A stretch of 64,000 bases of DNA from an uncultured Nitratireductor sp. Its GTDB lineage: Bacteria > Pseudomonadota > Alphaproteobacteria > Rhizobiales > Rhizobiaceae. Shown piece after piece: positions 13,293 to 26,908 of this stretch (positions are counted from its first letter, which is position 1; each line of letters opens with the position of its first letter). The notes under the pieces were generated by a model, which made no database searches, had not been told where the DNA came from, and worked only from the letters and a program-made list of their open reading frames with translations. Location: assembly GCF_913053745.1 (NCBI RefSeq), contig NZ_CAJXGF010000004.1, positions 1,157 to 65,156 of the forward strand. Direction: 5' to 3'. The position numbers were made by a program, and so were the translations under genes.

Positions 13293-15302
13293 TTAGTTAG
13301 CGCTGGCCACCGGCGCGACAAGCGGGGTAATCCGTCGCAAGGCCACGCGGCGGTTTTCACGTTCGCGCTCTCCGGTATCGATTTTGAGGTAGCGCTCGCC
13401 ATACCCCTGCGTGACCAGGTTTTCCGGCGGTATGCCGAAGACGTCCGTCAGGGCGCGTGCAACGGATTCGGCTCGACGATCCGAGAGCGCCAGATTGGCA
13501 AGATCCGAACCCACCGCATCCGTATGGCCTTCGATCAGGAAGGTTTCGCCCGGATTTTCGTCGAGCATGCGTTCGATTGCAGTGGCGATCGCCTCGAGCT
13601 CATCGATCTCGCTCTCGTCGATATCCGCGGAACCGAAGGCGAATTCGATCGTGTCCAGATCGACGCGGCGTACCATGTCGCGAACGCGTGCCGAGCGCTT
13701 CACCTCTTCAAGCGAATACATGCGCTGCACCGGCTCAACCGGCGGCTTCTCGAGAAAGGCGTAATAGCGGTCGGGATCTTCCACCCGCTCGGCCTCGAGA
13801 ATGTAATCGCTGACCGGGATGGTCAACCGCAGCGGCGGCAGGTCGCGAGCCGGATCGCGCCAGCGATCGACCGTTTCCAACCGCTCCTCGGGCACGAACA
13901 CAAGCACCTGCTCGCGGCCGTCAGGCGCGACCCGCACCCGGCGGATCACATCACCGTAACGGTTGCGAACGGTCACCAGACGAACGCCGTTGGGACGCGT
14001 AACAACCTCGCGGACCCGGCCGCGCGGCAGTTCCTCGTAGTAGACCTCGTCGTCGTCGCGGATGAGACGGTCGCTGTCCTGGCTTTCGACGAAAACCTGA
14101 TTGTTGATCTGGATGATCGTGCGGTTGTCGTTGAATTCGCGCACCACCTCAGCGTCCTCGCGGCGCTGGCGCAGCTCGCGCCGGCGTTCGCGGCGTTCCT
14201 CGCGTGTCGCGCCCATTTCGATGCGCTCACCCCGTTCTTCCATCAGAGTGCGGATTTCGCTGCGCAGAGTCTCCGCATCGATGGTTCCGGCCTGGGCCTC
14301 GGCGTCGCTTTCAGGGGGAGGGGCGGATTGTCCTGCTTCATCCGCAGGCGCCGCAGTCTGCGGGTCTGACGGCGTTTCGGCATCGCGATCGCCATTCGCC
14401 TCCGCGTCGGATCGAGGCTGTGCCTCGCCCTCGGCTTCAGGTTCCTTCTGGCTGTCCAGAACGGGCGCGGCGTTTTCGGGAAGGACCTCGGTTTCCGGCT
14501 GCGCGGAGTCCGAACCGGTCGTCGCCTCCTCTTCCGTCTGGCCTTCCTCTATGACGGGCTCGTCGACGGCCGGCTCAGAGGTTTCGGGCGCTTGCTCCGG
14601 CTCATCTCCGCCCACTTCGGTCTGCCCTTCGGTGTTCGGTGCGCCTTCTTCGGCCTCCACCGGCGGTGTTTCCTCCGTGGGAGCGTTTTCTGCCGGCGGA
14701 GTTACTTCGTCGGCCTCATCTTCCTGCAGTTCGGGCGCTTGCTGCTCGCCAGATCCGGCAGGTTGTTCGTCTTCTTCCGCTTCCAGTTCCACGGGCGCGT
14801 CTTCCGGCGCCGTTTCACCCTCGGCTTCGGCCGGTTCCTCTGCGGGAGGAGCGGTTTGTTCCGTTGCCGGAGGTTGCGCGTTTTCCTGTGACGGCGGCTC
14901 TTCGACGGGCGCTTGCTCGGATTCCGGTTCGGCAGTCTGCGGTTCGACCTCAACCTCCGGCGTCACCTCAGGTTCGACCTGAGGGGCAGCCTCGTCTTCT
15001 GCCGGAGCAGGGGTTTCGGTCGGCGCTTTCTGGTCGAGCTCACGCACTTCGCCGCCGCCATTGTCGTTCGCCGGGGCGTTTTCCGGTTCCTCGGTTTTCC
15101 TGTCCTGTTCCTGTCCCTCGCCGCCACGTTTCTTCAGGAGCGCGCGCCAGGCTTCTTCCGTCATGCCCTCAGGCTTTTGGGCCTGAGCGAGCACCGTGCC
15201 GGCGGACCGATCCGAAGCAAATCCAGGCTGAACCGCGAGCGGCGCCGCGGCGATAAGCAGGCCGAGGGCGGTTGTGGTCATGATCCGCTTTCGCGTTGTC
15301 AT
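13293..15302 (-). CDS. OmpA family protein with a long acidic Pro/Glu-rich region
   Basis: Signal peptide, a ~300-aa low-complexity P/E/A/T-rich segment, a conserved middle domain, and a C-terminal OmpA-like domain (FLIEGHTDAVGSDLANLALSDRRAESVARAL...NRRVAL). Confidence 0.88.
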   Translation of the reverse strand: MTTRKRIMTTTALGLLIAAAPLAVQPGFASDRSAGTVLAQAQKPEGMTEEAWRALLKKRGGEGQEQDRKTEEPENAPANDNGGGEVRELDQKAPTETPAPAEDEAAPQVEPEVTPEVEVEPQTAEPESEQAPVEEPPSQENAQPPATEQTAPPAEEPAEAEGETAPEDAPVELEAEEDEQPAGSGEQQAPELQEDEADEVTPPAENAPTEETPPVEAEEGAPNTEGQTEVGGDEPEQAPETSEPAVDEPVIEEGQTEEEATTGSDSAQPETEVLPENAAPVLDSQKEPEAEGEAQPRSDAEANGDRDAETPSDPQTAAPADEAGQSAPPPESDAEAQAGTIDAETLRSEIRTLMEERGERIEMGATREERRERRRELRQRREDAEVVREFNDNRTIIQINNQVFVESQDSDRLIRDDDEVYYEELPRGRVREVVTRPNGVRLVTVRNRYGDVIRRVRVAPDGREQVLVFVPEERLETVDRWRDPARDLPPLRLTIPVSDYILEAERVEDPDRYYAFLEKPPVEPVQRMYSLEEVKRSARVRDMVRRVDLDTIEFAFGSADIDESEIDELEAIATAIERMLDENPGETFLIEGHTDAVGSDLANLALSDRRAESVARALTDVFGIPPENLVTQGYGERYLKIDTGERERENRRVALRRITPLVAPVASAN

Positions 15303-15485
15303 AAAATCTCTCCTGTATGAGGGCGTCCCATCGCCGCCTTAACCCCCTCGATGGCGTTCGGTTCCCAATTCCGTTCGATTGATACCGGAGCGTGTGGAAC
15401 CATGGCGCCGGGGTGGCGAGAGGGTGACGGAATTGCGGTTGACGGGGCGCTTGACGCGGGGTGGATGGCGGTCCAAACCTCGATC

Positions 15486-15935
15486 ATGACGACGACCGAA
15501 TTCTGGAAAACCAAGACGCTGGCCGAACTGAGCGATCGGGAGTGGGAGGCACTGTGCGATGGCTGCGGCAAATGCTGCCTCGCCAAGCTCGAGGATGAGG
15601 AGACCGGCGAGATCTATTGGACGAGCGTTGGCTGTCGTCTGTTCGATGGCGGGACCTGCCGGTGCAACGATTATGAGAACCGGCTCACGCGCGTGCCCGA
15701 TTGCGTTCGCCTGACGCCGGAGAATGTGGGGGACATCCCCTGGCTGCCGAGCACTTGCGGTTATCGGCTCATGGCGGAAGGAAAGGACTTGGCCTGGTGG
15801 CATCCGCTCGTTTCCGGCGATCCCAACACCGTGCACGAGGCCGGCATTTCCATGCGCGGCCGCGTGAAGGCAAGCGAAGACGAGCTGACGCAAGCGGAAG
15901 ACTATTTCTCTTTTATCCTGGATGAGGAACCATAG
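15486..15935 (+). CDS. YcgN family cysteine-cluster protein (UPF0260)
   Basis: [59 protein letters not shown]. Confidence 0.88.
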
Positions 15936-15987
15936 TCCGCGTATGCGGCTTTTCGTCCGGGACGAGCAATCAACGAGGAGGATGACG

Positions 15988-16404
15988 ATGCCCGAGGAAA
16001 AGACGCGCCGCCTGGTACAATCTTATCTGGATGCATTGAACGCCAATGACCACGATGCGGCGCTGGCGCTGGTGAGCGAGGACGTGGCGCACGACCCCTT
16101 CGACGGTGAGCGGGAGATCGGTCGCGAAAAGCTGCGCTGGCGTTTGGGGCTCGAGGCGCGGCATTTCGATGAGCGTTTCGCCGACATTGCCGTGATGAGC
16201 GCCTCGGGCGGTGTGCGGGCTGCCGCCGAGTTCACGGTTCGCGGCACCTATCGCAAAAGCGCGGATGGCCTGCCGGAAGCAAATGGTCAATCCTATGTCT
16301 TGCCAGGTGGTATGTTTTTCGAGGTCGACGGAAATGAAATCACCCGCATCAGCGAGCAGCGAAACCCGGTGCAATGGCGTGCCGCACTGTCTGCGGATCG
16401 CTGA
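15988..16404 (+). CDS. SnoaL-like/NTF2-fold protein
   Basis: ATG 6 nt after GAGGAGG. RRLVQSYLDALNANDHDAALALVSEDVAHD is typical of the ketosteroid-isomerase-like fold. Confidence 0.7.
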   Translation: MPEEKTRRLVQSYLDALNANDHDAALALVSEDVAHDPFDGEREIGREKLRWRLGLEARHFDERFADIAVMSASGGVRAAAEFTVRGTYRKSADGLPEANGQSYVLPGGMFFEVDGNEITRISEQRNPVQWRAALSADR

Positions 16405-16506
16405 ACGCAGTATGAACGGCTCATTCCCAAATCGTTCAGACGCAGTTTGACATTGTGATCTCCATGACGGGGCGCGTGAGGGTCCTGATCAAACAAGGAG
16501 AGCACC

Positions 16507-16860
16507 ATGTTTCAGAAACTGAAGATCGCAACCCTTTCGACGCTGATCGGATTGGGCACATTGGCAGCGGCTCCGGCCACGGCTCAGGCCGACAGCCTGT
16601 ATTTTGGCTTCGGCATCGGCGGCCCGTCGGGCGGTTATATTCATGGCAATAGCGGCCGTAGCCATCGGGCCGAGCGTCCCCGCCGTCATCACCGTGCCTG
16701 CACGCCGCGTCAGGCCGTTCGCAAGGCGGAACGTTTCGGAATTCGTCGCGCCCGGGTCGTGCGGGCCAACCGCAATGTCATCCGCGTCGTTGGCCGCACC
16801 CACCGGGGACGTCAGCATATGGTTTTCGCGCGCGCGCCGCGCTGCCCGGTGATCCGCTAA
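16507..16860 (+). CDS. Small secreted basic hypothetical protein
   Basis: AAGGAGAG Shine-Dalgarno. Signal peptide ending ATAQA-D, followed by a His/Arg-rich mature part. Confidence 0.6.
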   Translation: MFQKLKIATLSTLIGLGTLAAAPATAQADSLYFGFGIGGPSGGYIHGNSGRSHRAERPRRHHRACTPRQAVRKAERFGIRRARVVRANRNVIRVVGRTHRGRQHMVFARAPRCPVIR

Positions 16861-16884
16861 CCGTTAGCCGACCGCTGACAAGCA

Positions 16885-16920
16885 CAAAAAAGCCGCCGGT
16901 AAATGCCGGCGGCTTTTTTG
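16885..16920. terminator. Bidirectional rho-independent terminator
   Basis: AAAAAAGCCGCCGG-TAAAT-GCCGGCGGCTTTTTT between convergent genes. Confidence 0.7.
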
Positions 16921-16936
16921 GGCGGTGAGCCTCGGC

Positions 16937-17665
16937 TTACTTGTCGAGCTCGAAGGTCACATTGACCTGCACCTGATAGGTGTTCTCGCCGGCTTCGACC
17001 GGAACGGCTTCAGCGGAGGCCTGCATCCGCACCGCCTTGCCGGCATAGGGCATGGGCGGACGCTGTTGCGCCTGCTCGGAAATCTCGATGATATCGCCGA
17101 GTTTGACGCCAGCGGCCTCCGCCAGTGTTCTGGCCTTGTCCATGGCGTTCTGGACGGCACGTTTGCGTGCCTCGGAGACAGTGGTCGAGGGGTCGTCATT
17201 GGTGAAGCTAAGGCCGCCGCCCTGATTGACGCCCAGCGTGACGGAGCGATCGAGAACCGCGCCGACCTTGTCGAGATCGCGGATGCGCACGGTCAGCGTG
17301 TTGCCGACCTCGTAACCGACGATGCGCGGTGACTCTTCCTCGTTCTTGTCGTTCGGATAGACGTAGCGCGGATTGATCGACAAGCCGCCGGTCTGCAGGT
17401 CGCGCGATTCGATCCCGTCTTCTTTCATGGCGTCGATGACCGAGGTCATTGCGTCATTGTTGGCGTCGAGTGCGGCGCGCGCGGTTTCGGCTTCACGTAC
17501 GACGGCGATTGTAAGGATCGCCATATCCGGGCTGATCGCGGCTTCTCCCTCGCCGGTCACGATGATTCGCGCGCGGTCGTCATCGGCATGAGCCGGCGCT
17601 GCGGCGAGAAGCGAAGCGGCAAGCATGGGGGCTGCAAAAGCGGCAGGAAAGATGGATTTGGTCAT
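16937..17665 (-). CDS. SIMPL-domain periplasmic protein (BP26/Omp28-like)
   Basis: Signal peptide MTKSIFPAAFAAPMLAASLLAAAPAHA. IIVTGEGEAAISPDMAILTIAV...VQVNVTFELDK matches the SIMPL/DUF541 layout. Confidence 0.88.
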   Translation of the reverse strand: MTKSIFPAAFAAPMLAASLLAAAPAHADDDRARIIVTGEGEAAISPDMAILTIAVVREAETARAALDANNDAMTSVIDAMKEDGIESRDLQTGGLSINPRYVYPNDKNEEESPRIVGYEVGNTLTVRIRDLDKVGAVLDRSVTLGVNQGGGLSFTNDDPSTTVSEARKRAVQNAMDKARTLAEAAGVKLGDIIEISEQAQQRPPMPYAGKAVRMQASAEAVPVEAGENTYQVQVNVTFELDK

Positions 17666-17775
17666 GGAAATCTCCTTTTGCGATGTCCGGATACGGCAAC
17701 TAGCGAGCGATTGTGTATCGATTGCGGCAAGGTGACTTGTGCAGCGATGAAAAAGCAACTACTCCATCGCCCACC

Positions 17776-17852: not shown

Positions 17853-18076
17853 GAAACGCCGTTCCGGGAGTGTCAGAATGCACCTCCCGGAACGGTATTC
17901 GTCTCAAGAACCCGATCTTTCATCCCTTGTGTATTTCCTGTCATGGCATTGTCCATTGGGAAAGCAACCATCATGTGATGGTGTCCTAATCCCTTTTGTT
18001 ACTGGCGGCTGCGCCGCACATTGGGCTTTCTGAAAAATCGGCCTGCGGAAACAGGGTGTCGTTTCCAGGGTGTGTG

Positions 18077-18104
18077 AAAACCCCGCCGGCGGTTACCGGC
18101 GGGG
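18077..18104 (-). terminator. Rho-independent terminator after the large secreted-protein gene
   Basis: Minus strand CCCCGCCGG-TAACCG-CCGGCGGGG followed by TTTT. Confidence 0.6.
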
Positions 18105-18127
18105 CCTCTTGCTTGGTGTGCTCCGTT

Positions 18128-21100
18128 TTACTGAAGCTGATTGCTCCTGTCGCGCGGCCGCAGGATTTGCGGATTGATGCGCAACGGGCGATCGAGCTGC
18201 TGTCGGGGCACCCGGTTGGTCGGCGGCGCCACGCGGATCTGCCGACAGTTGGGGTACTTGCCCGTCGTGCCGGGCGGACAACGGCGCTGCACAATCGGGC
18301 GGCAGTTCGGATACCTACCCGTTGTGCCCTGCGGGCAGCGGCGCTGTACGACCGGGCGGCAATTCGGGAACGTGCCCGTTGTGCCCCGCGGACAACGCGG
18401 CCGTACGATGGGTGCGCAATTGGGATAGCGCCCCGTCGTTCCCGGCGGGCATTGACGCTGCACCTCCGGCTTGCGGCAGGCCCCGGCCACCAGACGGGTT
18501 CCGCGCGGGCAGACACAGCGTCCGTCCTGGGTGCGGATCATGCCCGGAAGCAGACGGCACTGCTGGCGGATCGGCCGGCAGTTGGGCGGCGTGCCCGTCG
18601 TGCCGCGCGGGCACTCGCGCTCGATCTGCGGCTTGACGCAGCGGCCGTTCTGGAGCCGTGTTCCACGCGGGCAAACACAGCGTCCGTCGCGCGTGCGGAT
18701 CTGACCCGGCAGAAGCCGGCACTGCGGCCGGGGATCTGCCTGCGGCTTCGGATCGGGCTCGCGCGGCGGCGTTGGCCGGGGCGTGGGCAGCGGAACCGGA
18801 GCGGTTTGCGTGCCGACGCACTGGCCGTTGCGGAAGGTGGTGCCTTCCGGACAGACACAGCGCCCGTCATTGTTGAGAACAAGACCCGGCGAACATTGCT
18901 GGTCCTCATCCTCATCCGCCAGAACCGTGAAGTCATGGCAGTCATAGGCGCGGCCGTCTCCGGTCCCATCCGGCGCACCGGAGAGGGAGGGCGCGGTGCG
19001 CACATCCGCTCCACGGTCGATCACCGCAGCGCAGTTGCGTCCCGATGCACCATTGCCCACCGCGTTGGCGAGGCCGCCATCTTCCGGCAGCTCGACAACG
19101 ACCTCATGCGTGCGGCTTTCGCCACTGGCAAGGGTGAGGTCGGCTTCGCAGGCGAAGGGAAGCTCGGTCGGTTCGGGCGAACAGCCGAAGGGCGGGTTCA
19201 CCGAAACGATCCGGGCCGGAACGCCGCCGAAACCTTCTACCCGAAGCGCATCGCCGATGCGAACCGGACCGGAGATCGATGACGGACCTTCATTGCGGAT
19301 GGTGATCTGGAACGTGCAGGGCTGACCAAGCAGGCACTCCGCATCGCCGGTCTTTTCGACCGTGATCCGGGTGCCGCCCTGAGCACAGGCCTCGCCGATG
19401 GGATAGACGATGTCGTCCCCCGGAGCCGGGCCGAAGGAACCGCGTGCGCAGTTCTCGAACCGCTCATTGGGTGACACATTGACCGTCACATCGAAGTGCC
19501 GCGCGGTTCCGGGTGTCATGACGGCGCCGGGGATCTCGCAGGTGAGATTGGCCGCAGGCACCGCGCCGCAGGACCATTCCGGACCGTCAGGCGTGACAGT
19601 CTGGATGTCGACCGGCGCACCGCTGCCGATGATTTCGGCCGCGTCGTTGACGCGAACCGGTCCGACGGGTGCTGCCGTTCCGGCATTGCTGACAGTGATC
19701 CGGCAGGCCACACCTTCGGCGAGCGACACGGTGGGCTCACAGGTCTTCTGGATGCGCATTTGCGGCTGGCCGCCCGGGATGCCCGGTATGGTCGCCGTCG
19801 CACAGGCCTCGTTGTTGGCGAGATTGGTTTCGCCTTCAAGCGCGGTCACTTTCGCACAGTTCTCGACCTCGTTTGTCGGATAATCGCCGACGATTGTGGT
19901 CACGAGAATGTCCGTCGATGCGCCTGGCACGAGATTCAGGCCCGGATGGTCGCACTGGAACGTGTTGCCGGCGAGCGGCGCGCACGACCAGGGCGGCGAG
20001 GGGCTGAACGATGCCGAGGCGACATCACCGGCCGGGAACGTGTCCACGAAGCTGACAGGACCGTTGATCGGCGCCGCACCCGCATTGATGATTGTCACGA
20101 CATAGGTGCAGAGACCGTCTGGCGTACAGACCGTGGGTTCGGCCCGCTTGCGCACGGCGATGTCCGGAATGTCGTTCTCCGGCGGCGTGCAGGCCGGATC
20201 GCCCGGCAGGCAGATCGCGATGGTGGCGCAGGCCTTGTCGTTGGTCGGATCGCCGAACGGATCCTTGCCGCTGGCCGTGTAGTCATATGCGGCGCAATTG
20301 CGGATCGCGCTCCAGCTCCATGCCGGTCCCGGCTGGAAGCCGAGCTTCAGCTCCACGAATTCGCCCGGGTTGAGCGTGGTTTCGGGGTGTTCGCACGACA
20401 TGGGGCTCATCATCGGCACGCAGGTCCACGGCGCATTTGGCCCCGAGACCACCGCTGCGTTTCCGGGCGTCGTCACCTCATCCAACACGATCTTGCTGGT
20501 GTAAGGCGCATCGCCCGCATTGGAGACGCGAATGGTGAAATCGCACGAACCGTCGATCTCGCATTCGGCCTCATCGGCGCGCTTCTCGACCTTGATGTCG
20601 GGCTCGCCCTCGTCGTCGGGCGGGCATTCGAGGTCTTCGGGGATTTCAATGTCGACCACCTGCGAGCAACACAGGCCGACGCCTTCAGCGGGACCCGCAT
20701 AGGTCTCGATGCTGGTGACGATCAGATGCACCGTATCGCCGGGCAGTGCGCCGGTGATTTCCCATTCGAGCGTGCCGCCGCCGGCGGGAACGGCCTGGCT
20801 CGGCGGATCGATGGTGATGCCGGGCGTGGTGGATGTCACGGTGACGACATTGCCTGCCATCTCCGGGCCGACATCCATGCGATAGATATAGGCACCGCCA
20901 CCGGGAAGGCAGTCCACTTCACCGGTCTCGACCGAGAAACAGGCCTCTTCCGGCCCGTCGCCGGGCGGCGGGGGAGGCGGTGGCGGATCGCAATCCGTTA
21001 CATCGATGATGATAGCGGTGGGATCGCCGGTCTTCCAGTCGCCATCGTCCGGCAGGGCCGGGTCATGGGACGGAATGGTGGCGACGAGCCCGCCGGTTGC

Positions 21101-21799
21101 GGTGCGGATCACGGCCACATTGGCCTGATTGTCGACATTGGTGGCGGCAGGGAAGGCCGCCTGGTCGATCTTTGCCTTGATGGTGATATCGATGGCGCGC
21201 TCGGTCAGGCTGCCGTCGCCGTCGAGATCGGCGGCGGACAGGTGAAAATCCGACTGGGTGAGCGTGTCGTCCAGGGTACCGGTCGTGCTGACCACATGGG
21301 GTGGAACGGCTCCGCCGCCAGCACCGATGATATCGCCGCTGAACGTGGCGTCGACAATCGCCAGATTGGCGGGAAGCTGATCGGTAAACTCGAAGGTTAC
21401 ATTGGTGAGGAATGCGTCGAGGCCTGGGTGCGCGATCATGTCGGGCGTGCCGCGCACGCCGAGGCGCAGGCGATATTCCACATAATCGCAGTTGAGCTGC
21501 GTTCCGCGCTTTTCGAGGAAAGGCGTCAGGTCGGGCTCGGTTTCCGGCTCCAACGGTTCAAGCTCGATGCGTGGGCCTTCGGCGTCGCCCGGCGTTTCGA
21601 GAACCTCAAGCTCCTCGATCGTCCGGTCCTGTGCTCTGGCCTGATTGATGCCGGAAAGCGGTATGAACGCGGTGGAGAGCGCCATGCCCGCCACCAGCAG
21701 CCAGCGCGGCGAGCGCGCTTTTTCTGCAAGGGGTTTCATGATCGTCTCCATGACATTGTTGACCGTCAGCCGGTCGGCGGGAATTGTGAACATGTTCAT
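18128..21799 (-). CDS. Large secreted multidomain protein: four DUF11-like Cys-bracketed modules plus a Cys-rich tandem-repeat tail
   Basis: GGAGG lies 5 nt before the ATG at 21799. An alternative ATG at 21739 (GGAG Shine-Dalgarno) sits directly before signal peptide MKPLAEKARSPRWLLVAGMALSTAFIPLSGINQARA-Q. Contains a poly-Pro stretch, four ~90-aa repeats of the form (I/V)xK..C..C.(I/V).(I/V).N.G...W.C...C, then CPxGTTGxxPNC repeats. Confidence 0.85.
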   Translation of the reverse strand: MNMFTIPADRLTVNNVMETIMKPLAEKARSPRWLLVAGMALSTAFIPLSGINQARAQDRTIEELEVLETPGDAEGPRIELEPLEPETEPDLTPFLEKRGTQLNCDYVEYRLRLGVRGTPDMIAHPGLDAFLTNVTFEFTDQLPANLAIVDATFSGDIIGAGGGAVPPHVVSTTGTLDDTLTQSDFHLSAADLDGDGSLTERAIDITIKAKIDQAAFPAATNVDNQANVAVIRTATGGLVATIPSHDPALPDDGDWKTGDPTAIIIDVTDCDPPPPPPPPGDGPEEACFSVETGEVDCLPGGGAYIYRMDVGPEMAGNVVTVTSTTPGITIDPPSQAVPAGGGTLEWEITGALPGDTVHLIVTSIETYAGPAEGVGLCCSQVVDIEIPEDLECPPDDEGEPDIKVEKRADEAECEIDGSCDFTIRVSNAGDAPYTSKIVLDEVTTPGNAAVVSGPNAPWTCVPMMSPMSCEHPETTLNPGEFVELKLGFQPGPAWSWSAIRNCAAYDYTASGKDPFGDPTNDKACATIAICLPGDPACTPPENDIPDIAVRKRAEPTVCTPDGLCTYVVTIINAGAAPINGPVSFVDTFPAGDVASASFSPSPPWSCAPLAGNTFQCDHPGLNLVPGASTDILVTTIVGDYPTNEVENCAKVTALEGETNLANNEACATATIPGIPGGQPQMRIQKTCEPTVSLAEGVACRITVSNAGTAAPVGPVRVNDAAEIIGSGAPVDIQTVTPDGPEWSCGAVPAANLTCEIPGAVMTPGTARHFDVTVNVSPNERFENCARGSFGPAPGDDIVYPIGEACAQGGTRITVEKTGDAECLLGQPCTFQITIRNEGPSSISGPVRIGDALRVEGFGGVPARIVSVNPPFGCSPEPTELPFACEADLTLASGESRTHEVVVELPEDGGLANAVGNGASGRNCAAVIDRGADVRTAPSLSGAPDGTGDGRAYDCHDFTVLADEDEDQQCSPGLVLNNDGRCVCPEGTTFRNGQCVGTQTAPVPLPTPRPTPPREPDPKPQADPRPQCRLLPGQIRTRDGRCVCPRGTRLQNGRCVKPQIERECPRGTTGTPPNCRPIRQQCRLLPGMIRTQDGRCVCPRGTRLVAGACRKPEVQRQCPPGTTGRYPNCAPIVRPRCPRGTTGTFPNCRPVVQRRCPQGTTGRYPNCRPIVQRRCPPGTTGKYPNCRQIRVAPPTNRVPRQQLDRPLRINPQILRPRDRSNQLQ
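18245..18721 (-). repeat. Nested in-frame coding tandem repeats (57-bp unit within a ~162-bp unit)
   Basis: Four consecutive CPxGTTGxxPNC(R/A)P(I/V)V.RR units (19 aa) at 18245-18451. Two larger units, CRLLPG.IRT.DGRCVCPRGTRL..G.C.KP....(E/Q) plus CPxGTTG..PNC, span 18395-18721. By eye, DNA copies 18497-18561 and 18658-18722 match at most positions. Confidence 0.85.
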
Positions 21800-21810
21800 C
21801 TCTCCCTCCC

Positions 21811-23802
21811 TCACGGCGCACAGGATTCAAGCGGCGTTTCAAGCGGCAACGTCACCTTGCAACAGGGGAAGTAGCCACCCGCCTCGGCATCGGACTTTCT
21901 GTAGAAGCACAGGCCGAGATCGACGGTTTCGCCGGGAATGTGGCCATTGATGCCGAGTGTGAACGGCGTGGCCAGACCGGGGACCGTCTGCTTGGACGGG
22001 GAAACGCCGACGCCGGGCGTCAGCGATTTCGCGGAAAGCGAATCGCCACCGATGCCGGCGCGGTCATGGATGTAGAGATCGGCTTCAAGCCCTGCGGGCG
22101 TACAGAAATACGCCGCCGTCTCCAGCTCGATACAGGGCGGGATATCGTTGGGCGGCGGGAAGCCGGGCGGCCAGCCGGGGACGGGAATGTCACCCGGATA
22201 GGGGATAGGCTCGTAGTAGCCGGCGCGGCCCTCGCAGGGACGCCAGACCTCCACGTCGCCGACATGCCCCTTGACCTCGGGGTCTTCGAAGAAGCCGTCG
22301 TAATCGGCAAACCACGAGCCGAAGGGCGGTTCGTTTTTTGGCCGCACGAGCGTGCTTCTCGTAAGCTGCACACCATGAACGGCGAGCGGCCCGCCCTCGA
22401 TGAGCTGCTCTTCAAGGGCAGGGTTGTCGCGCAGCCTGTCGCCGGTTTTCACCAGCGTGGCCGCGCAGGCATTGCGGTTGAAGAAGCCTTCGGCGTCATA
22501 ACCATATTGCAGGTCGATGCCGCCGGCTCCCTGTCGGTATGGTTCGGGAAAACCGACCGCATATTCCTGCGGTGCCGGCACCCAGACGCTTTCGGTTTCG
22601 GGATCGTCGGGGCTTTCGCGCCAGTAGCGCAGCACCGATGCCTCTCCGCTGTCGGCAAAGCTCGAATAGTCGTAGCGGTTTTCAACTTCGCCGCGCTGGG
22701 CGAGATACATGAAACCGCGCGTGTCGAAAGCAATGTCGGTGACGGGGAGGTCTTCCTCCGCCTCCACCGTCAGCTCCCAGCGCGGGTCGCCGGCGAACGT
22801 GCCGTCGCGAGCGATGCCCACGGACCAGATTTCCGCTTCCTCGCCAACGGCGTAGTAGAGGCGTCCACCGTGCATGGAGAGGCCATGAACGCGGCGCTCT
22901 TCCTGCGTGTAGCCCCAGCTTTTCGGCTCTTCCGCGTCGAAGGCAGCGCCCTGAATGTCCATCACGGCGCCATCGTCGGCCACGGGATCGAGCCCGCGTG
23001 CCGCCCTTCCGTCCACGCCATGATCGAACGTGTCGATGAGATTGCCGTCGATGTCGATGCGGTGAATGAGGCCGCTGTCGAGATCGGAAGCGAAGAACTG
23101 GCGATGCGACCGGTCGAAGGCGATGTTGCCGATGCCGGGGCCGCTGTTCGTGTCGATATTGGCAAACAGGGTCACGGCGCCGGTGATGCCGTCAATCTTC
23201 CAGATCGAACCGGGACCGCCGCCATTCTTCTCGCCGAACTGCCCGTCCATGAAGCGCGCGCCGGCTTCGCCGCGGCGCTGCCGTTCGGGCCGCCCGTCCT
23301 CGTCGGCGTCTTCCGTGACGATCTGGAGGCCGTGCAGGGACGTGGCGGCGGCGTAAAGGTTCGGCACGATGGCCGTTGTCTCTTCACGCTTGCCGTCATC
23401 GTATGCAAGGCCGAACACCTGGCCGATTTCGGCGGCCGGCACTTCGAAGGGCGGCGGCGTAAAAACCACCTGTCCGCTGGGCGGGGCGCCGAGCCAGGTC
23501 ATGTCGAAGATGCGCAGCGAAGCGCGCTCGGTGTCGATGAAGGTTTCGTCCACCGGGTCGACGCCGGGGAGCAGTCCCTCCTCGAAGCCGGGAATATGTG
23601 TGCCCGGGAAACCGGTCACGGCCATGAAGCCCGGTTGGATGATTGCGTTTTCCTGCGCGCTTGCCGGCGCGTTCGATGAAATTCCCGCCATCACGGCGAG
23701 CGCTATGGCCGCGGTGCTTTCAAGAAAATGTCTGGCGATTGTGCCAGAGTGACGTGGTGCGTTTCTGCCGCACCGTGTCGGGAACTGCCGGTTTTGCCCC
23801 AT
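21811..23802 (-). CDS. Secreted hypothetical protein (663 aa) sharing a C-terminal Cys-containing domain with the downstream large protein
   Basis: ATG at 23802 lies 6 nt after GGGAGG. Signal peptide ...STAAIALAVMAGISSNAPASA-QE. Its stop overlaps the downstream ORF. I recognise no named family. Confidence 0.8.
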   Translation of the reverse strand: MGQNRQFPTRCGRNAPRHSGTIARHFLESTAAIALAVMAGISSNAPASAQENAIIQPGFMAVTGFPGTHIPGFEEGLLPGVDPVDETFIDTERASLRIFDMTWLGAPPSGQVVFTPPPFEVPAAEIGQVFGLAYDDGKREETTAIVPNLYAAATSLHGLQIVTEDADEDGRPERQRRGEAGARFMDGQFGEKNGGGPGSIWKIDGITGAVTLFANIDTNSGPGIGNIAFDRSHRQFFASDLDSGLIHRIDIDGNLIDTFDHGVDGRAARGLDPVADDGAVMDIQGAAFDAEEPKSWGYTQEERRVHGLSMHGGRLYYAVGEEAEIWSVGIARDGTFAGDPRWELTVEAEEDLPVTDIAFDTRGFMYLAQRGEVENRYDYSSFADSGEASVLRYWRESPDDPETESVWVPAPQEYAVGFPEPYRQGAGGIDLQYGYDAEGFFNRNACAATLVKTGDRLRDNPALEEQLIEGGPLAVHGVQLTRSTLVRPKNEPPFGSWFADYDGFFEDPEVKGHVGDVEVWRPCEGRAGYYEPIPYPGDIPVPGWPPGFPPPNDIPPCIELETAAYFCTPAGLEADLYIHDRAGIGGDSLSAKSLTPGVGVSPSKQTVPGLATPFTLGINGHIPGETVDLGLCFYRKSDAEAGGYFPCCKVTLPLETPLESCAP

Positions 23803-24268: not shown

Positions 24269-24841
24269 ATGAGCGGTGCTGCGGACCAGATGTCCGACGC
24301 AGAACTTGTGGCCAGAACGGCGCGCGGCGAACGGACTGCGCTGAGGCTCTTGTTCATGCGGCATCACACGCGCGTCTACCGCTTCGTGGTGCGCCAGACG
24401 GGATCGGAGACCATGGCGGAAGAAATCGCGAATGAAGTGTTTCTGGAGGTGTGGCGCCAGGCGCCACGCTTCGAGGCACGCTCGCAGGTTTCCACCTGGC
24501 TTCTCGGCATTGCGCGGTTCAAGGCGCTTTCGGCGTTGCGCAAACGCAAAGAGAAGGCTCTGGAAGAGGGGCAGGCCGAGGCCGTCGCCGACAGCGCGGA
24601 TACGCCGGAAGTCTCGGCGATGAAGGAGGACAAGGCGACGGCGCTGCGCGGTTTCGTCAACCATTTGTCGGAAGAGCACCGCACGGTGGTCGACCTTGCC
24701 TATTACCATGGCAAGTCGGTGACCGAGATTGGCGAGATCCTTTCCGTGCCCATCGCCACCGTGAAAACCAGGATGTTTTACGCACGCAAGAAGCTTGGAG
24801 AAGCCTTGCAGGCGGCAGGATACGATCGAGGCTGGCCATGA
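24269..24841 (+). CDS. ECF-type RNA polymerase sigma factor
   Basis: Region 2 (LLFMRHHTRVYRFVVRQTGSETMAEEIANEVFLEVWRQA..FEARSQVSTWLLGIARFKAL) and region 4 (VVDLAYYHGKSVTEIGEILSVPIATVKTRMFYARKKL). Confidence 0.92.
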   Translation: MSGAADQMSDAELVARTARGERTALRLLFMRHHTRVYRFVVRQTGSETMAEEIANEVFLEVWRQAPRFEARSQVSTWLLGIARFKALSALRKRKEKALEEGQAEAVADSADTPEVSAMKEDKATALRGFVNHLSEEHRTVVDLAYYHGKSVTEIGEILSVPIATVKTRMFYARKKLGEALQAAGYDRGWP

Positions 24842-25494
24842 GCGAGAACCCACAATCGAACCGCCGCGACCGGCTGGAGGCGCTGTTGCCGTTCTTTCTG
24901 AATGGCACACTCTCCGGGGCGGAACTGCGCGAAGTGGAGGAATGGCTCGCCTCTGATCCACAGGCAATGGCCTCGCTGGCCGAAGCCGAAGGCGAGTATT
25001 CCGCAACCCTTGCCGACAATGAGGCGATCCGCCCGACGGACGATGCATTGGCGCGCTTTTCAGAAGCGTTGGCTGAAGAGGCTGGGCCGGAAAAGATGGC
25101 AAAGCCCGCATTTAGGGAGCGGCTTGCCCGCATTCTGCCCGCGTTTCCGGTTCAGGCTGCCTGGGTGGCTGCGGGTCTGGCGCTCGCCATTTTGGTGGGG
25201 CAGACCGTGTGGCTCGGTCTATCGCAGACGGAGCAATACTCCGTCGCCGGCGCGGAGGATGATGATGCACCCTTCGCCTTCGTGACCTTTACAGCGGAAG
25301 CCTCGATGGCCGATGTCTCGGCGTTGCTGGACGAAAGCGAAGTCGAGATTGCTGCCGGGCCGCTGCCGGACGGACTCTACCGGGTGCTTATCCCGGCCGA
25401 AACGGCCGCACAATACGATGAGATCGTTGCCGGGCTGGAGCGGGCCGGTGTGGTGGAAACCGTTGTGACGGGGCGTAAACCTGGTGATGAATAG
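24838..25494 (+). CDS. Anti-sigma factor (single-pass membrane protein, no zinc-binding Cys motif)
   Basis: ATGA overlap with the sigma gene. N-terminal anti-sigma-like helix bundle (LEALLPFFLNGTLSGAELREVEEWLASDPQ), one TM helix (AAWVAAGLALAILVGQTVWLGL), and a ~90-aa periplasmic tail. Confidence 0.75.
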   Translation: MSENPQSNRRDRLEALLPFFLNGTLSGAELREVEEWLASDPQAMASLAEAEGEYSATLADNEAIRPTDDALARFSEALAEEAGPEKMAKPAFRERLARILPAFPVQAAWVAAGLALAILVGQTVWLGLSQTEQYSVAGAEDDDAPFAFVTFTAEASMADVSALLDESEVEIAAGPLPDGLYRVLIPAETAAQYDEIVAGLERAGVVETVVTGRKPGDE

Positions 25495-26908
25495 GGCTTT
25501 CACGCGTATATTGAGCGGTGTCGTGCTTGCCGTTTTTCTGGAGGGCCCCGTGTTCGCCCAAACCGCGTCGCCAAACGGATCGGCGCGGACGCTCGTGGCG
25601 AACGGAGTGCGTGAGGATGCGGCAGCGGGCGAGCGCCATGTGATCTATCTGCCCGAAATGCTGGCCGAGCTATTCGGGCCCGGAATTGGCAGCGACGCCT
25701 CCGCGCGCTCTTCTGCGCCCCCGGCTGCCGATGCCGCTGCGACAAACGGGGATCCGGCAAATCCGAACAGCGACGGAGCGGCCGCGTCGGTATCCGTATC
25801 TGCCAGCGCAGGGTCGTTTGCGCGGCCGGTTGAGCCGCAGCGGGCCATTTCGGGCGCCATCGTGCCGGACGAAGTGCTGGTCACCCTGGCTGGTGACGAG
25901 GGGGTGGTCAACGCGGTCGCCGCGCAATTCGGACTGGAGGTGCGTTCCGCCCGCGCTTCGACACTTCTTGGCCGCACCGTTGCACGCCTTGGCATCCCCG
26001 ATGGGCGTCCTGTGGGGTTCGTGCTCGCTCAGCTTGCCGGCGACGGTCGGCTGGCCGATCGTGTGCCAAATCATCTGTTCGAACTACAGCAGGCGGCGGG
26101 CGTGGTGAATTACGCCTTCGAACGCATCGCACTCGATGCCGGTGTCGTGAGTGGAGAGAATGTAAGCGTCGCGGTGATCGACACCAGCTTCGACGAGGAG
26201 CATCCCGCTCTCAAGGGACGCATCGCAGGCACGTTCGATGCGCTCCCGAATATGGCTGTGAACGACCGTGATCATGGCACGTCCATTTCCGGCCTAATCG
26301 CTGGCGATGGACCGTTTCGGGGAATCGCGCCGGGCGTTCGCCTGCTCCATGCACGGGCTTTCGAGAGCGGTGTGTCGAGCACCGACGTCCTTCTTGCCGC
26401 CCTCGATTGGGCAGTGGAAGAGGGCGCGCAGATCGTGAATATGAGCTTTGTCGGGCCGGAGAACCCGCTCTTTTCCGCAGCCTGTCGCAATGCGGTTGCG
26501 CGCGGCGTGGTGCTTGTTGCGGCAGCCGGGAACAACGGGCCGAATGCGCCGTTCGGTTATCCTGCCGCCTATGAGAGTGTCATCGCCGTGACGGCGACCG
26601 ACGTTCGCGACAAGCTTATGGGCAAGGCCAATCGCGGCCGCTACATCGATCTATCGGCGCCGGGCGTAAACGTGGTTGCGCCCATTTCCGGCGGCATCGA
26701 TGTTGTGACGGGCACCTCTTTTGCGGCCGCCGTCGTTTCCGGTGCGATTGCCAATCTCATGCATGCCGGTGAGGACGCAACGCCGGAAGCGCTGGCCGAA
26801 CTGCTGCGGACCACCGCCGTGGATCTCGGTGTGCCGGGCCGGGATGAGGATTTCGGAGATGGGTTGCTGAATGCCAAGGCGGCCATGGAGGCACGTGTCG
26901 AAGATTAG
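25487..26908 (+). CDS. S8 family serine peptidase (subtilase) with signal peptide and N-terminal pro-region
   Basis: Signal peptide MNRAFTRILSGVVLAVFLEGPVFA-Q. Catalytic triad contexts VAVIDTSFD, DHGTSISGLIAG, GTSFAAAVVSG. Overlaps the anti-sigma stop by 8 nt (GTG at 25484 is an alternative start). Confidence 0.9.
   Translation: MNRAFTRILSGVVLAVFLEGPVFAQTASPNGSARTLVANGVREDAAAGERHVIYLPEMLAELFGPGIGSDASARSSAPPAADAAATNGDPANPNSDGAAASVSVSASAGSFARPVEPQRAISGAIVPDEVLVTLAGDEGVVNAVAAQFGLEVRSARASTLLGRTVARLGIPDGRPVGFVLAQLAGDGRLADRVPNHLFELQQAAGVVNYAFERIALDAGVVSGENVSVAVIDTSFDEEHPALKGRIAGTFDALPNMAVNDRDHGTSISGLIAGDGPFRGIAPGVRLLHARAFESGVSSTDVLLAALDWAVEEGAQIVNMSFVGPENPLFSAACRNAVARGVVLVAAAGNNGPNAPFGYPAAYESVIAVTATDVRDKLMGKANRGRYIDLSAPGVNVVAPISGGIDVVTGTSFAAAVVSGAIANLMHAGEDATPEALAELLRTTAVDLGVPGRDEDFGDGLLNAKAAMEARVED

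Follow-up and report, generated by a model that had tools for sequence, protein, structure and literature searches.

Why do two adjacent genes for predicted secreted proteins share a cysteine-containing domain, and what would this domain do for their products? This question is raised by a gene pair located in a stretch of DNA of 64,000 nucleotides, here referred to as the window, from an uncultured Nitratireductor sp. (NCBI RefSeq assembly GCF_913053745.1, contig NZ_CAJXGF010000004.1, positions 1,157 to 65,156 of the forward strand). An earlier note, made from the letters of the window, had pointed out a segment of about 101 amino acids (aa) common to the two proteins, which we name A and B, and had proposed either a duplication within the locus or a common interaction, anchoring or processing handle. 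In this work, we describe the segment as a member of an unnamed immunoglobulin-like (Ig-like) domain family with two ancient types: type I, which ends protein A, and type II, which lies inside protein B. The two types are encoded side by side in nearly all the genomes examined, and may act as a docking pair that attaches a propeller-like head (A) to a fibrillar stalk (B). What is new is the domain family itself, together with a variant of adhesin architecture in which two chains would be joined by paired paralogous Ig-like domains.

Two genes with one domain in common

Genes A and B both lie on the minus strand, a detail that the earlier note left unstated: translation of the plus strand at the coordinates of the segment is unrelated to the peptides quoted there, whereas the minus strand yields exactly those. 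The parts of both genes are the following.

21811..23802, minus strand: gene A, encoding a predicted secreted protein of 663 aa (open reading frame (ORF), stop codon included; start MGQNRQF)
23653..23802, minus strand: putative signal peptide region of A, aa 1-50, ...AIALAVMAGISSNAPASA/QE (read from the sequence)
22198..23640, minus strand: propeller-like body of A, aa ~55-535 (homology, AlphaFold2 (AF2) and Foldseek)
22141..22197, minus strand: proline-rich linker of A, aa 536-554, PGDIPVPGWPPGFPPPNDI (read from the sequence)
21814..22140, minus strand: type I copy, A aa 555-663, with 6 Cys, at the extreme C-terminus, ending in ...ETPLESCAP-stop
18128..21814, minus strand: gene B, encoding an adhesin-like protein of 1228 aa (ORF from GTG)
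20996..21523, minus strand: DUF7929 domain of B, aa 98-273 (Pfam, E = 4.5e-79)
20948..20995, minus strand: poly-proline linker of B, aa 274-289, DCDPPPPPPPPGDGPE (read from the sequence)
20618..20947, minus strand: type II copy, B aa 290-399, with 5 Cys, internal, ending in ...EIPEDLECPP
18929..20605, minus strand: four DUF11/CLIPPER-type repeats of B, aa 404-962, the predicted stalk (Pfam and NCBIfam)
18131..18928, minus strand: basic, Cys-rich C-terminal repeats of B, aa 963-1228, CPxGTTGxxPNC... (read from the sequence)

The coordinates and the gapless alignment of the earlier note were right: between window positions 20639-20941 and 21832-22134 (both on the minus strand), 28 of 101 positions are identical. 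With an identity of only 28% and a composition abundant in G, P, T and V, the similarity could be suspected of reflecting chance, or the shared composition of Gly/Pro/Thr-rich secreted proteins encoded by DNA of 62% G+C, the value of the window. However, the alignment has a BLOSUM62 score of 111, against -98 +/- 22 for shuffles of the same composition (z = 9.4), with none of 200,000 shuffles scoring as high, and a BLASTP comparison of whole A with whole B returned the shared segment as its sole significant match (E = 6e-8). These two results rule out a chance or compositional origin, to which we assign a practically negligible probability; the coherent family with invariant cysteines and motifs recovered by a profile, and the conservation of both copies in all 80 loci described below, speak against it as well. 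No third copy of the domain was found in the window by tblastn.

All the conserved positions listed by the earlier note are among the invariant positions of the alignment. Even though the similarity it described was borne out, the length fell slightly short, since the addition of orthologues revealed a fifth invariant cysteine just past its end point (P-x3/4-C-x-P). The domain unit is therefore one of about 110 aa, which corresponds to 20618-20947 (minus strand; B 290-399) and 21814-22140 (minus strand; A 555-663).

The two genes had also been called co-operonic, and this agrees with their layout: the GTG of gene B overlaps the stop codon of gene A (GTGA, 21811-21814), and two contigs from RNA runs, which derive from relatives with 90-95% identity, cover both genes and are unstranded and may include DNA, bridge the A/B junction, consistent with one transcript for both. 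Both starts admit alternatives. The maximal ORF of gene A reaches 24177, the 663 aa being counted from MGQNRQF, and gene B could instead start at a conserved METIMKPL (21751). Two RNA-run contigs of related strains (X1 and X3) skip 128 nucleotides within the first 47 codons of gene A (window 23661-23790), and relatives differ in the N-terminal region of this gene or in where it truly begins. Antisense to A and B run long ORFs on the plus strand, at 17996-19282 (428 aa), 19496-21874 (792 aa) and 21940-23679 (579 aa); these Arg/Gly/Ala-rich frames are shadow ORFs typical of high-G+C DNA, and no genes.

An unnamed family of Ig-like domains

Among 1.84 billion representative proteins searched with a profile of the domain, 178 matched at E <= 1e-3, 38 of them at E <= 1e-10; earlier word-indexed searches, with the domain profile and with the N-terminal 420 aa of B, had given 4 and 9 fragmentary proteins. 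With 178 representative clusters, encoded on contigs of 51-71% G+C, the domain is not private to the locus, as the earlier note had supposed. Its members share a signature formed by cysteines at positions 3, 13, 93, 94 and 108, an (S/T)xTPGV motif near position 40 and a G-x-x-PG motif near 66-70, and both window copies carry it in full.

The AF2 model of the copy in B, computed from an alignment of 18 sequences, is a beta-sandwich of eight strands (predicted local distance difference test (pLDDT) 81, predicted template modelling score 0.69). The copy in A was modelled independently, within whole A, with a pLDDT of 70-80 and the same strand order, so that both copies show one eight-stranded topology. 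Moreover, 5 of 123 complete copies lose Cys13 and Cys108 together, a covariation that indicates a Cys13-Cys108 disulfide. The earlier suggestion of a cysteine-stabilised Ig-like module is thus supported by the model and by this joint loss.

Compared against the Protein Data Bank (PDB) by Foldseek, the predicted structure of the type II copy is most similar to MSP, PapD-type chaperone and ASH domains, with template modelling (TM) scores of 0.55-0.60 and a best E of 5e-4, which makes the Ig-like match a generic one. The predicted model resembles these domains, among which are pilus chaperone N-domains, major sperm protein and VAP, in its s-type Ig-like sandwich of seven to eight strands, and they are protein-protein interaction modules. 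However, their identity to it is only 10-17%, there is no PapD_N or Motile_Sperm Pfam match, and those families show neither TPGV and PG motifs nor the pattern of five to six cysteines. When 40 diverse members were compared with Pfam and NCBIfam, each model matched two of them at most, at E >= 0.015; among the same 40, one member has a single Cohesin match (E = 9e-4), and a profile search of PDB sequences returned nothing better than E = 0.037. The earlier note had recognised no named family, and none was found in these libraries. In the literature, the only paper found to mention DUF7929 or CLIPPER was PMC12617251, and nothing was found on the Ig-like domain or on the A-B gene pair.

Several more specific identities were considered and rejected. 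CLIPPER/DUF11 (PF01345) resembles the new domain in size, Ig-like fold, cysteine content and presence in B, but it forms repeat arrays, whereas the new domain occurs as a single copy per protein and its type I ends another protein. As a divergent CLIPPER/DUF11 repeat it matches faintly in only 2 of 40 members, with E = 0.024 at best, an hhalign comparison with the four repeats of the locus gave a probability of 2.5%, and Pfam places no DUF11 stretch over B aa 290-399 or anywhere in A. The C-terminal domain of the type IX secretion system (T9SS), with its 80-100 aa or so, is likewise an Ig-like sandwich and, like type I, closes the secreted proteins that carry it; it differs in its hidden Markov model (HMM), with no Pfam or NCBIfam (Por_Secre_tail) match, and in its hosts, since Nitratireductor, Mesorhizobium and Aminobacter belong to the wrong phylum, and type II is internal. 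Alphaproteobacteria are not known to have a T9SS. A thioester-type C-x-Q chemistry at 'LCCSQ' was dismissed because the glutamine is unconserved beyond close orthologues. As for a Lys-Asp/Glu-Asn isopeptide triad, typical of CLIPPER/DUF11, the domain alignment shows no prominent conserved Lys/Asn pair. The domain is therefore an unnamed Ig-like family of about 110 aa, with the predicted fold of a disulfide-locked beta-sandwich.

Two ancient types at fixed positions

The cysteine patterns of the 123 complete copies separate the family into two main types, with 90 copies showing the pattern CC-CCC (type II) and 25 the pattern CCCCCC (type I). Type I is marked by an additional cysteine in strand F, a K or R after the CC pair, and its place at the end of the protein, with a median of 3.5 residues to the terminus. 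The small copy of the window shows these features (GLCFY...PCCK), its last domain residue lying 3 aa before the stop of A. Type II is marked by the absence of the strand-F cysteine, S, T or N after the CC pair, and an internal place, with a median of 545 residues after the copy; the large copy of the window is of this kind (IVTSI...LCCS), since 829 aa of B lie beyond it.

The proteins that carry the two types differ accordingly in their remaining domains. All complete type I proteins contain the propeller-like region of A, of about 480 aa (phmmer/HMM E 1e-50 to 1e-217), and some have an additional Peptidase_C14 domain at the N-terminus. In one distant lineage (L084:7001-12720), the A-type protein consists of Peptidase_C14 (caspase-like), propeller and type I domain, and B is followed by genes for PG_binding_1 and TIR_2 proteins. 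The proteins with type II, which are of large size, have DUF11/CLIPPER, DUF5979, SdrD_B or other Ig-like stalk domains, and DUF7929 in a subset.

When HMMs of the two types were built from members with at most 40% identity to the window copies, the copy of A scored 78.8 bits with type I and 51.7 with type II, and the copy of B scored 91.3 bits with type II and 36.7 with type I. As each copy scores best with distant members of its own type, the two are old paralogues, and the duplication inside the locus that the earlier note had contemplated is rejected as a recent event, the more so as both copies are present in 80 of 80 loci.

The gene pair across genomes

Relatives of A were found in 205 stretches of a one-genome-per-species collection, 80 of which were examined; these 80 genomes belong to Mesorhizobium, Nitratireductor, Aminobacter and relatives (Phyllobacteriaceae). 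In all 80, gene A with its type I domain is followed on the same strand by gene B with type II, directly so in 79, and each genome contains exactly two copies of the domain. The same arrangement extends to distant contigs of 51-71% G+C, reached from single representative proteins, where a propeller with a type I domain is followed by a type II protein, overlapping or a few bases on, in nine of nine cases. It also holds for 22 metagenome contigs that were seeded only on the type I motif: five end too early, and a type II copy lies 0.7-2.4 kb downstream on the same strand in all 17 with enough sequence. The pairing persists where A has the extra caspase domain and where B is without DUF7929, and its single exception (L088/P0212) has two tandem copies in one chain. 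We are highly confident that the domain family is real and new, and that it follows the pairing rule described here.

The predicted head and the predicted stalk

The 775 homologues of A are all annotated as hypothetical, and A itself has no Pfam or NCBIfam match. As read from its sequence, the putative signal peptide consists of a hydrophobic stretch with an A-x-A site behind it. The AF2 model of whole A is poor (pLDDT 47.7); it contains repeated four-stranded units, and its Foldseek matches are beta-propellers (SMP-30, NHL and YWTD), so that nothing beyond 'propeller-like' is supported. Between this body and the type I domain lies the proline-rich linker, a feature common to the family, since the proline fraction in the 25 aa preceding type I copies is 0.20, against a background of 0.09.

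Protein B has a signal-like N-terminus, as read from the sequence, followed by DUF7929, listed as a predicted CnaA-like isopeptide domain (PMC12617251, Table 1), the poly-proline linker, the type II copy and four CLIPPER repeats. The latter match DUF11 (E = 1.2e-22, three stretches by Pfam) and TIGR01451, the four repeats being delimited by alignment, and CLIPPER is an isopeptide stalk domain (PMC12617251). The C-terminal region is without Pfam match and consists of 'CP[RPQ]GTTGxxPNC[RA]P' about six times, 'CxLLPGxIRTxDGRCVCPRGTRLxxGxC' twice, and a related, shorter 'DGRCVCPEGTTFRNGQC' upstream. In B, no known domain for anchoring or secretion was detected, and the locus encodes no pilus machinery. 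The C-terminal repeats may be the cell-proximal, envelope-binding end of the protein, and similar repeats stand beside a PG_binding_1 domain in the fusion protein described below. With its signal-like N-terminus and its four stalk repeats, B is a putative fibrillar-adhesin-like protein, which may lie at the cell surface.

Fusion proteins and a proposed docking of head and stalk

Two natural fusions show that head and stalk can be one chain, in the order of head, the pair in one of the two, stalk and envelope-binding end. The first (P0263), a metagenome protein of 977 aa, has an A-type propeller, two tandem copies of the domain and three Bact_surface_Ig-like domains. The second, an ORF of 1817 aa in Ciceribacter thiooxidans (L092:6770-12220, equal to NZ_CP059897.1 313198-318648, on a replicon of 1.38 Mb), comprises a signal peptide, the propeller (E = 4e-82), a proline-rich linker, five DUF11/CLIPPER stretches, PG_binding_1 and Cys-rich C-terminal repeats, and has no copy of the Ig-like domain. 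In the PLSDB gene table, this ORF is not annotated as a gene.

Together with the homology of the two types, their fixed positions and the pairing of their genes, these proteins suggest how the two types may work. Protein A would be exported by the Sec pathway and, after export and oxidation, its type I domain, held at the C-terminus by the proline-rich tether, would bind the type II domain in the N-terminal part of B. This contact would fix the propeller head of A to the isopeptide-stabilised stalk of B, in its distal part, and the two gene products would thus form one adhesin-like fibre. Such a docking predicts that the pair is needed only if head and stalk are separate chains, which would explain why the Ciceribacter fusion has no copies. 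Of the alternatives raised by the earlier note, the evidence favours the common interaction handle, and we give about even chances to type I and type II being a matched docking pair that attaches the head of A to the stalk of B. The contact between the two domains, like the roles of head and stalk and the cellular location, is what we infer from these observations.

As a second possibility, the copies could be structural Ig-like spacer or capping modules derived from an old duplication or fission, which never touch each other, with A and B cooperating in some other way, such as the propeller acting on or binding another part of B. Ig-like spacers are indeed common in fibrillar adhesins (PMC12617251), and the generic fold match would suit them. 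In a mere spacer, however, one would not expect type II to be the best-conserved part of B: among 71 loci from outside Nitratireductor, its identity to the window is 68.5%, compared with 50% for DUF7929, 56-61% for the CLIPPER repeats and 39% for the C-terminus. Neither would one expect two types to keep fixed positions over deep divergence, nor the domain to vanish exactly when head and stalk are fused. We regard spacer modules as a possible, if unlikely, explanation.

Several observations weigh against docking, the first two of which also speak for spacers. In a mirror-tree analysis, the partial r between type I and type II was 0.13, compared with 0.47 between type I and the first CLIPPER repeat; there is thus no specific signal of co-evolution, and we consider the analysis uninformative. 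Copy number and order vary in a few proteins, with type II preceding type I in P0190 and three copies in P0266. DUF7929 precedes type II in the B protein of the window, so that a docked A would lie next to the tip of B rather than at it, and only one fusion without copies was found.

The odd cysteine of type II

Across 76 complete orthologues, B has 49 to 65 cysteines in total, and this number is odd in 73 cases. Two cysteines lie before the domain, five within it (76/76), and an even number after it (75/76); mature orthologues of A, on the other hand, have exactly eight cysteines in 108 of 109 cases. Since the odd total is located in the domain and A is fixed at eight, type II would have a conserved unpaired cysteine. 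Since a type II variant without position 93 has an even cysteine count, this is probably the following residue, the partner of the strand-F cysteine in type I.

20669..20671, minus strand: Cys382 of B, family position C93, probable unpaired cysteine

An unpaired cysteine needs a partner, and A has none to spare. This favours a third reading, in which both domains would be handles for another component that recognises the same fold, be it an export, folding, anchoring or processing factor, or an envelope ligand such as polysaccharide or peptidoglycan. Type I does end its protein, as C-terminal sorting domains are known to do, and proteases occur nearby or fused, with an S8 subtilase next to the window locus and Peptidase_C14 on A elsewhere. 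However, no third gene is conserved beside the pair in distant contexts, the internal place of type II poorly fits a terminal sorting signal, and one common reader would leave the consistent differences between the types unexplained, all of which makes a third component rather improbable. 

Returning to docking, a covalent version of it can be envisaged, in which Cys382 of B would attack an extra disulfide between strands F and G, present in type I alone (Cys632-Cys647 of A), so that head and stalk, once docked, would be coupled by thiol-disulfide exchange. We consider this a long shot. If true, it would represent a self-assembling two-chain adhesin in Gram-negatives and a natural protein-ligation pair comparable to the isopeptide 'catcher/tag' systems.

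Likeness to known two-chain systems

Antibodies offer a precedent for such a pair, as their CL and CH1 domains are paralogous Ig domains that sit on separate chains and are linked by an interchain disulfide. A and B resemble them in having diverged Ig-like paralogues on two chains and an apparently unpaired cysteine in one partner. However, there is no homology, the pairing is here a prediction, and an interchain disulfide is not evident, given that A has no spare cysteine. In functional logic, the pair would also resemble cohesin-dockerin and the tip adhesins on pilus shafts, such as the PilY1 propeller on type IV pili, where a head or an enzyme is joined to a scaffold via a module pair. A propeller head on a fibre would follow the same principle, whereas the folds and families are unrelated.

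Neighbouring genes

Upstream of gene A, three genes are encoded divergently on the plus strand (24269-26908), and two further genes lie downstream of the pair on the minus strand (13293-17758).

24269-24841, plus strand: extracytoplasmic function (ECF) sigma factor
24841-25494, plus strand: probable anti-sigma factor, without Pfam match
25484-26908, plus strand: S8 subtilase
16937-17758, minus strand: SIMPL/DUF541 protein
13293-15302, minus strand: OmpA-family protein, 669 aa

The ECF sigma factor, the anti-sigma factor and the S8 subtilase adjoin the gene pair in only 16, 15 and 12 of the 80 genomes, respectively; beside the distant pairs they are absent throughout. The idea that the domain belongs to ECF-linked loci is therefore not general: it occurs widely without ECF genes, and we rejected an ECF-sigma-linked module as its explanation.

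Meaning for the family and for rhizobia

With this analysis, a domain family unnamed in current libraries is now defined, which gives an initial clue to the function of two large families of secreted proteins known only as hypothetical. The findings suggest that some Gram-negative fibrillar adhesins of the CLIPPER type are two gene products joined by a dedicated Ig-like pair, which would be a clear case of gene fission or fusion shaping the architecture of adhesins. If the two domains bind tightly, or covalently through the odd cysteine, they would also be of practical interest as a compact and orthogonal module for docking. In rhizobia, and here we speculate, such a surface structure could bear on the attachment to roots or particles.

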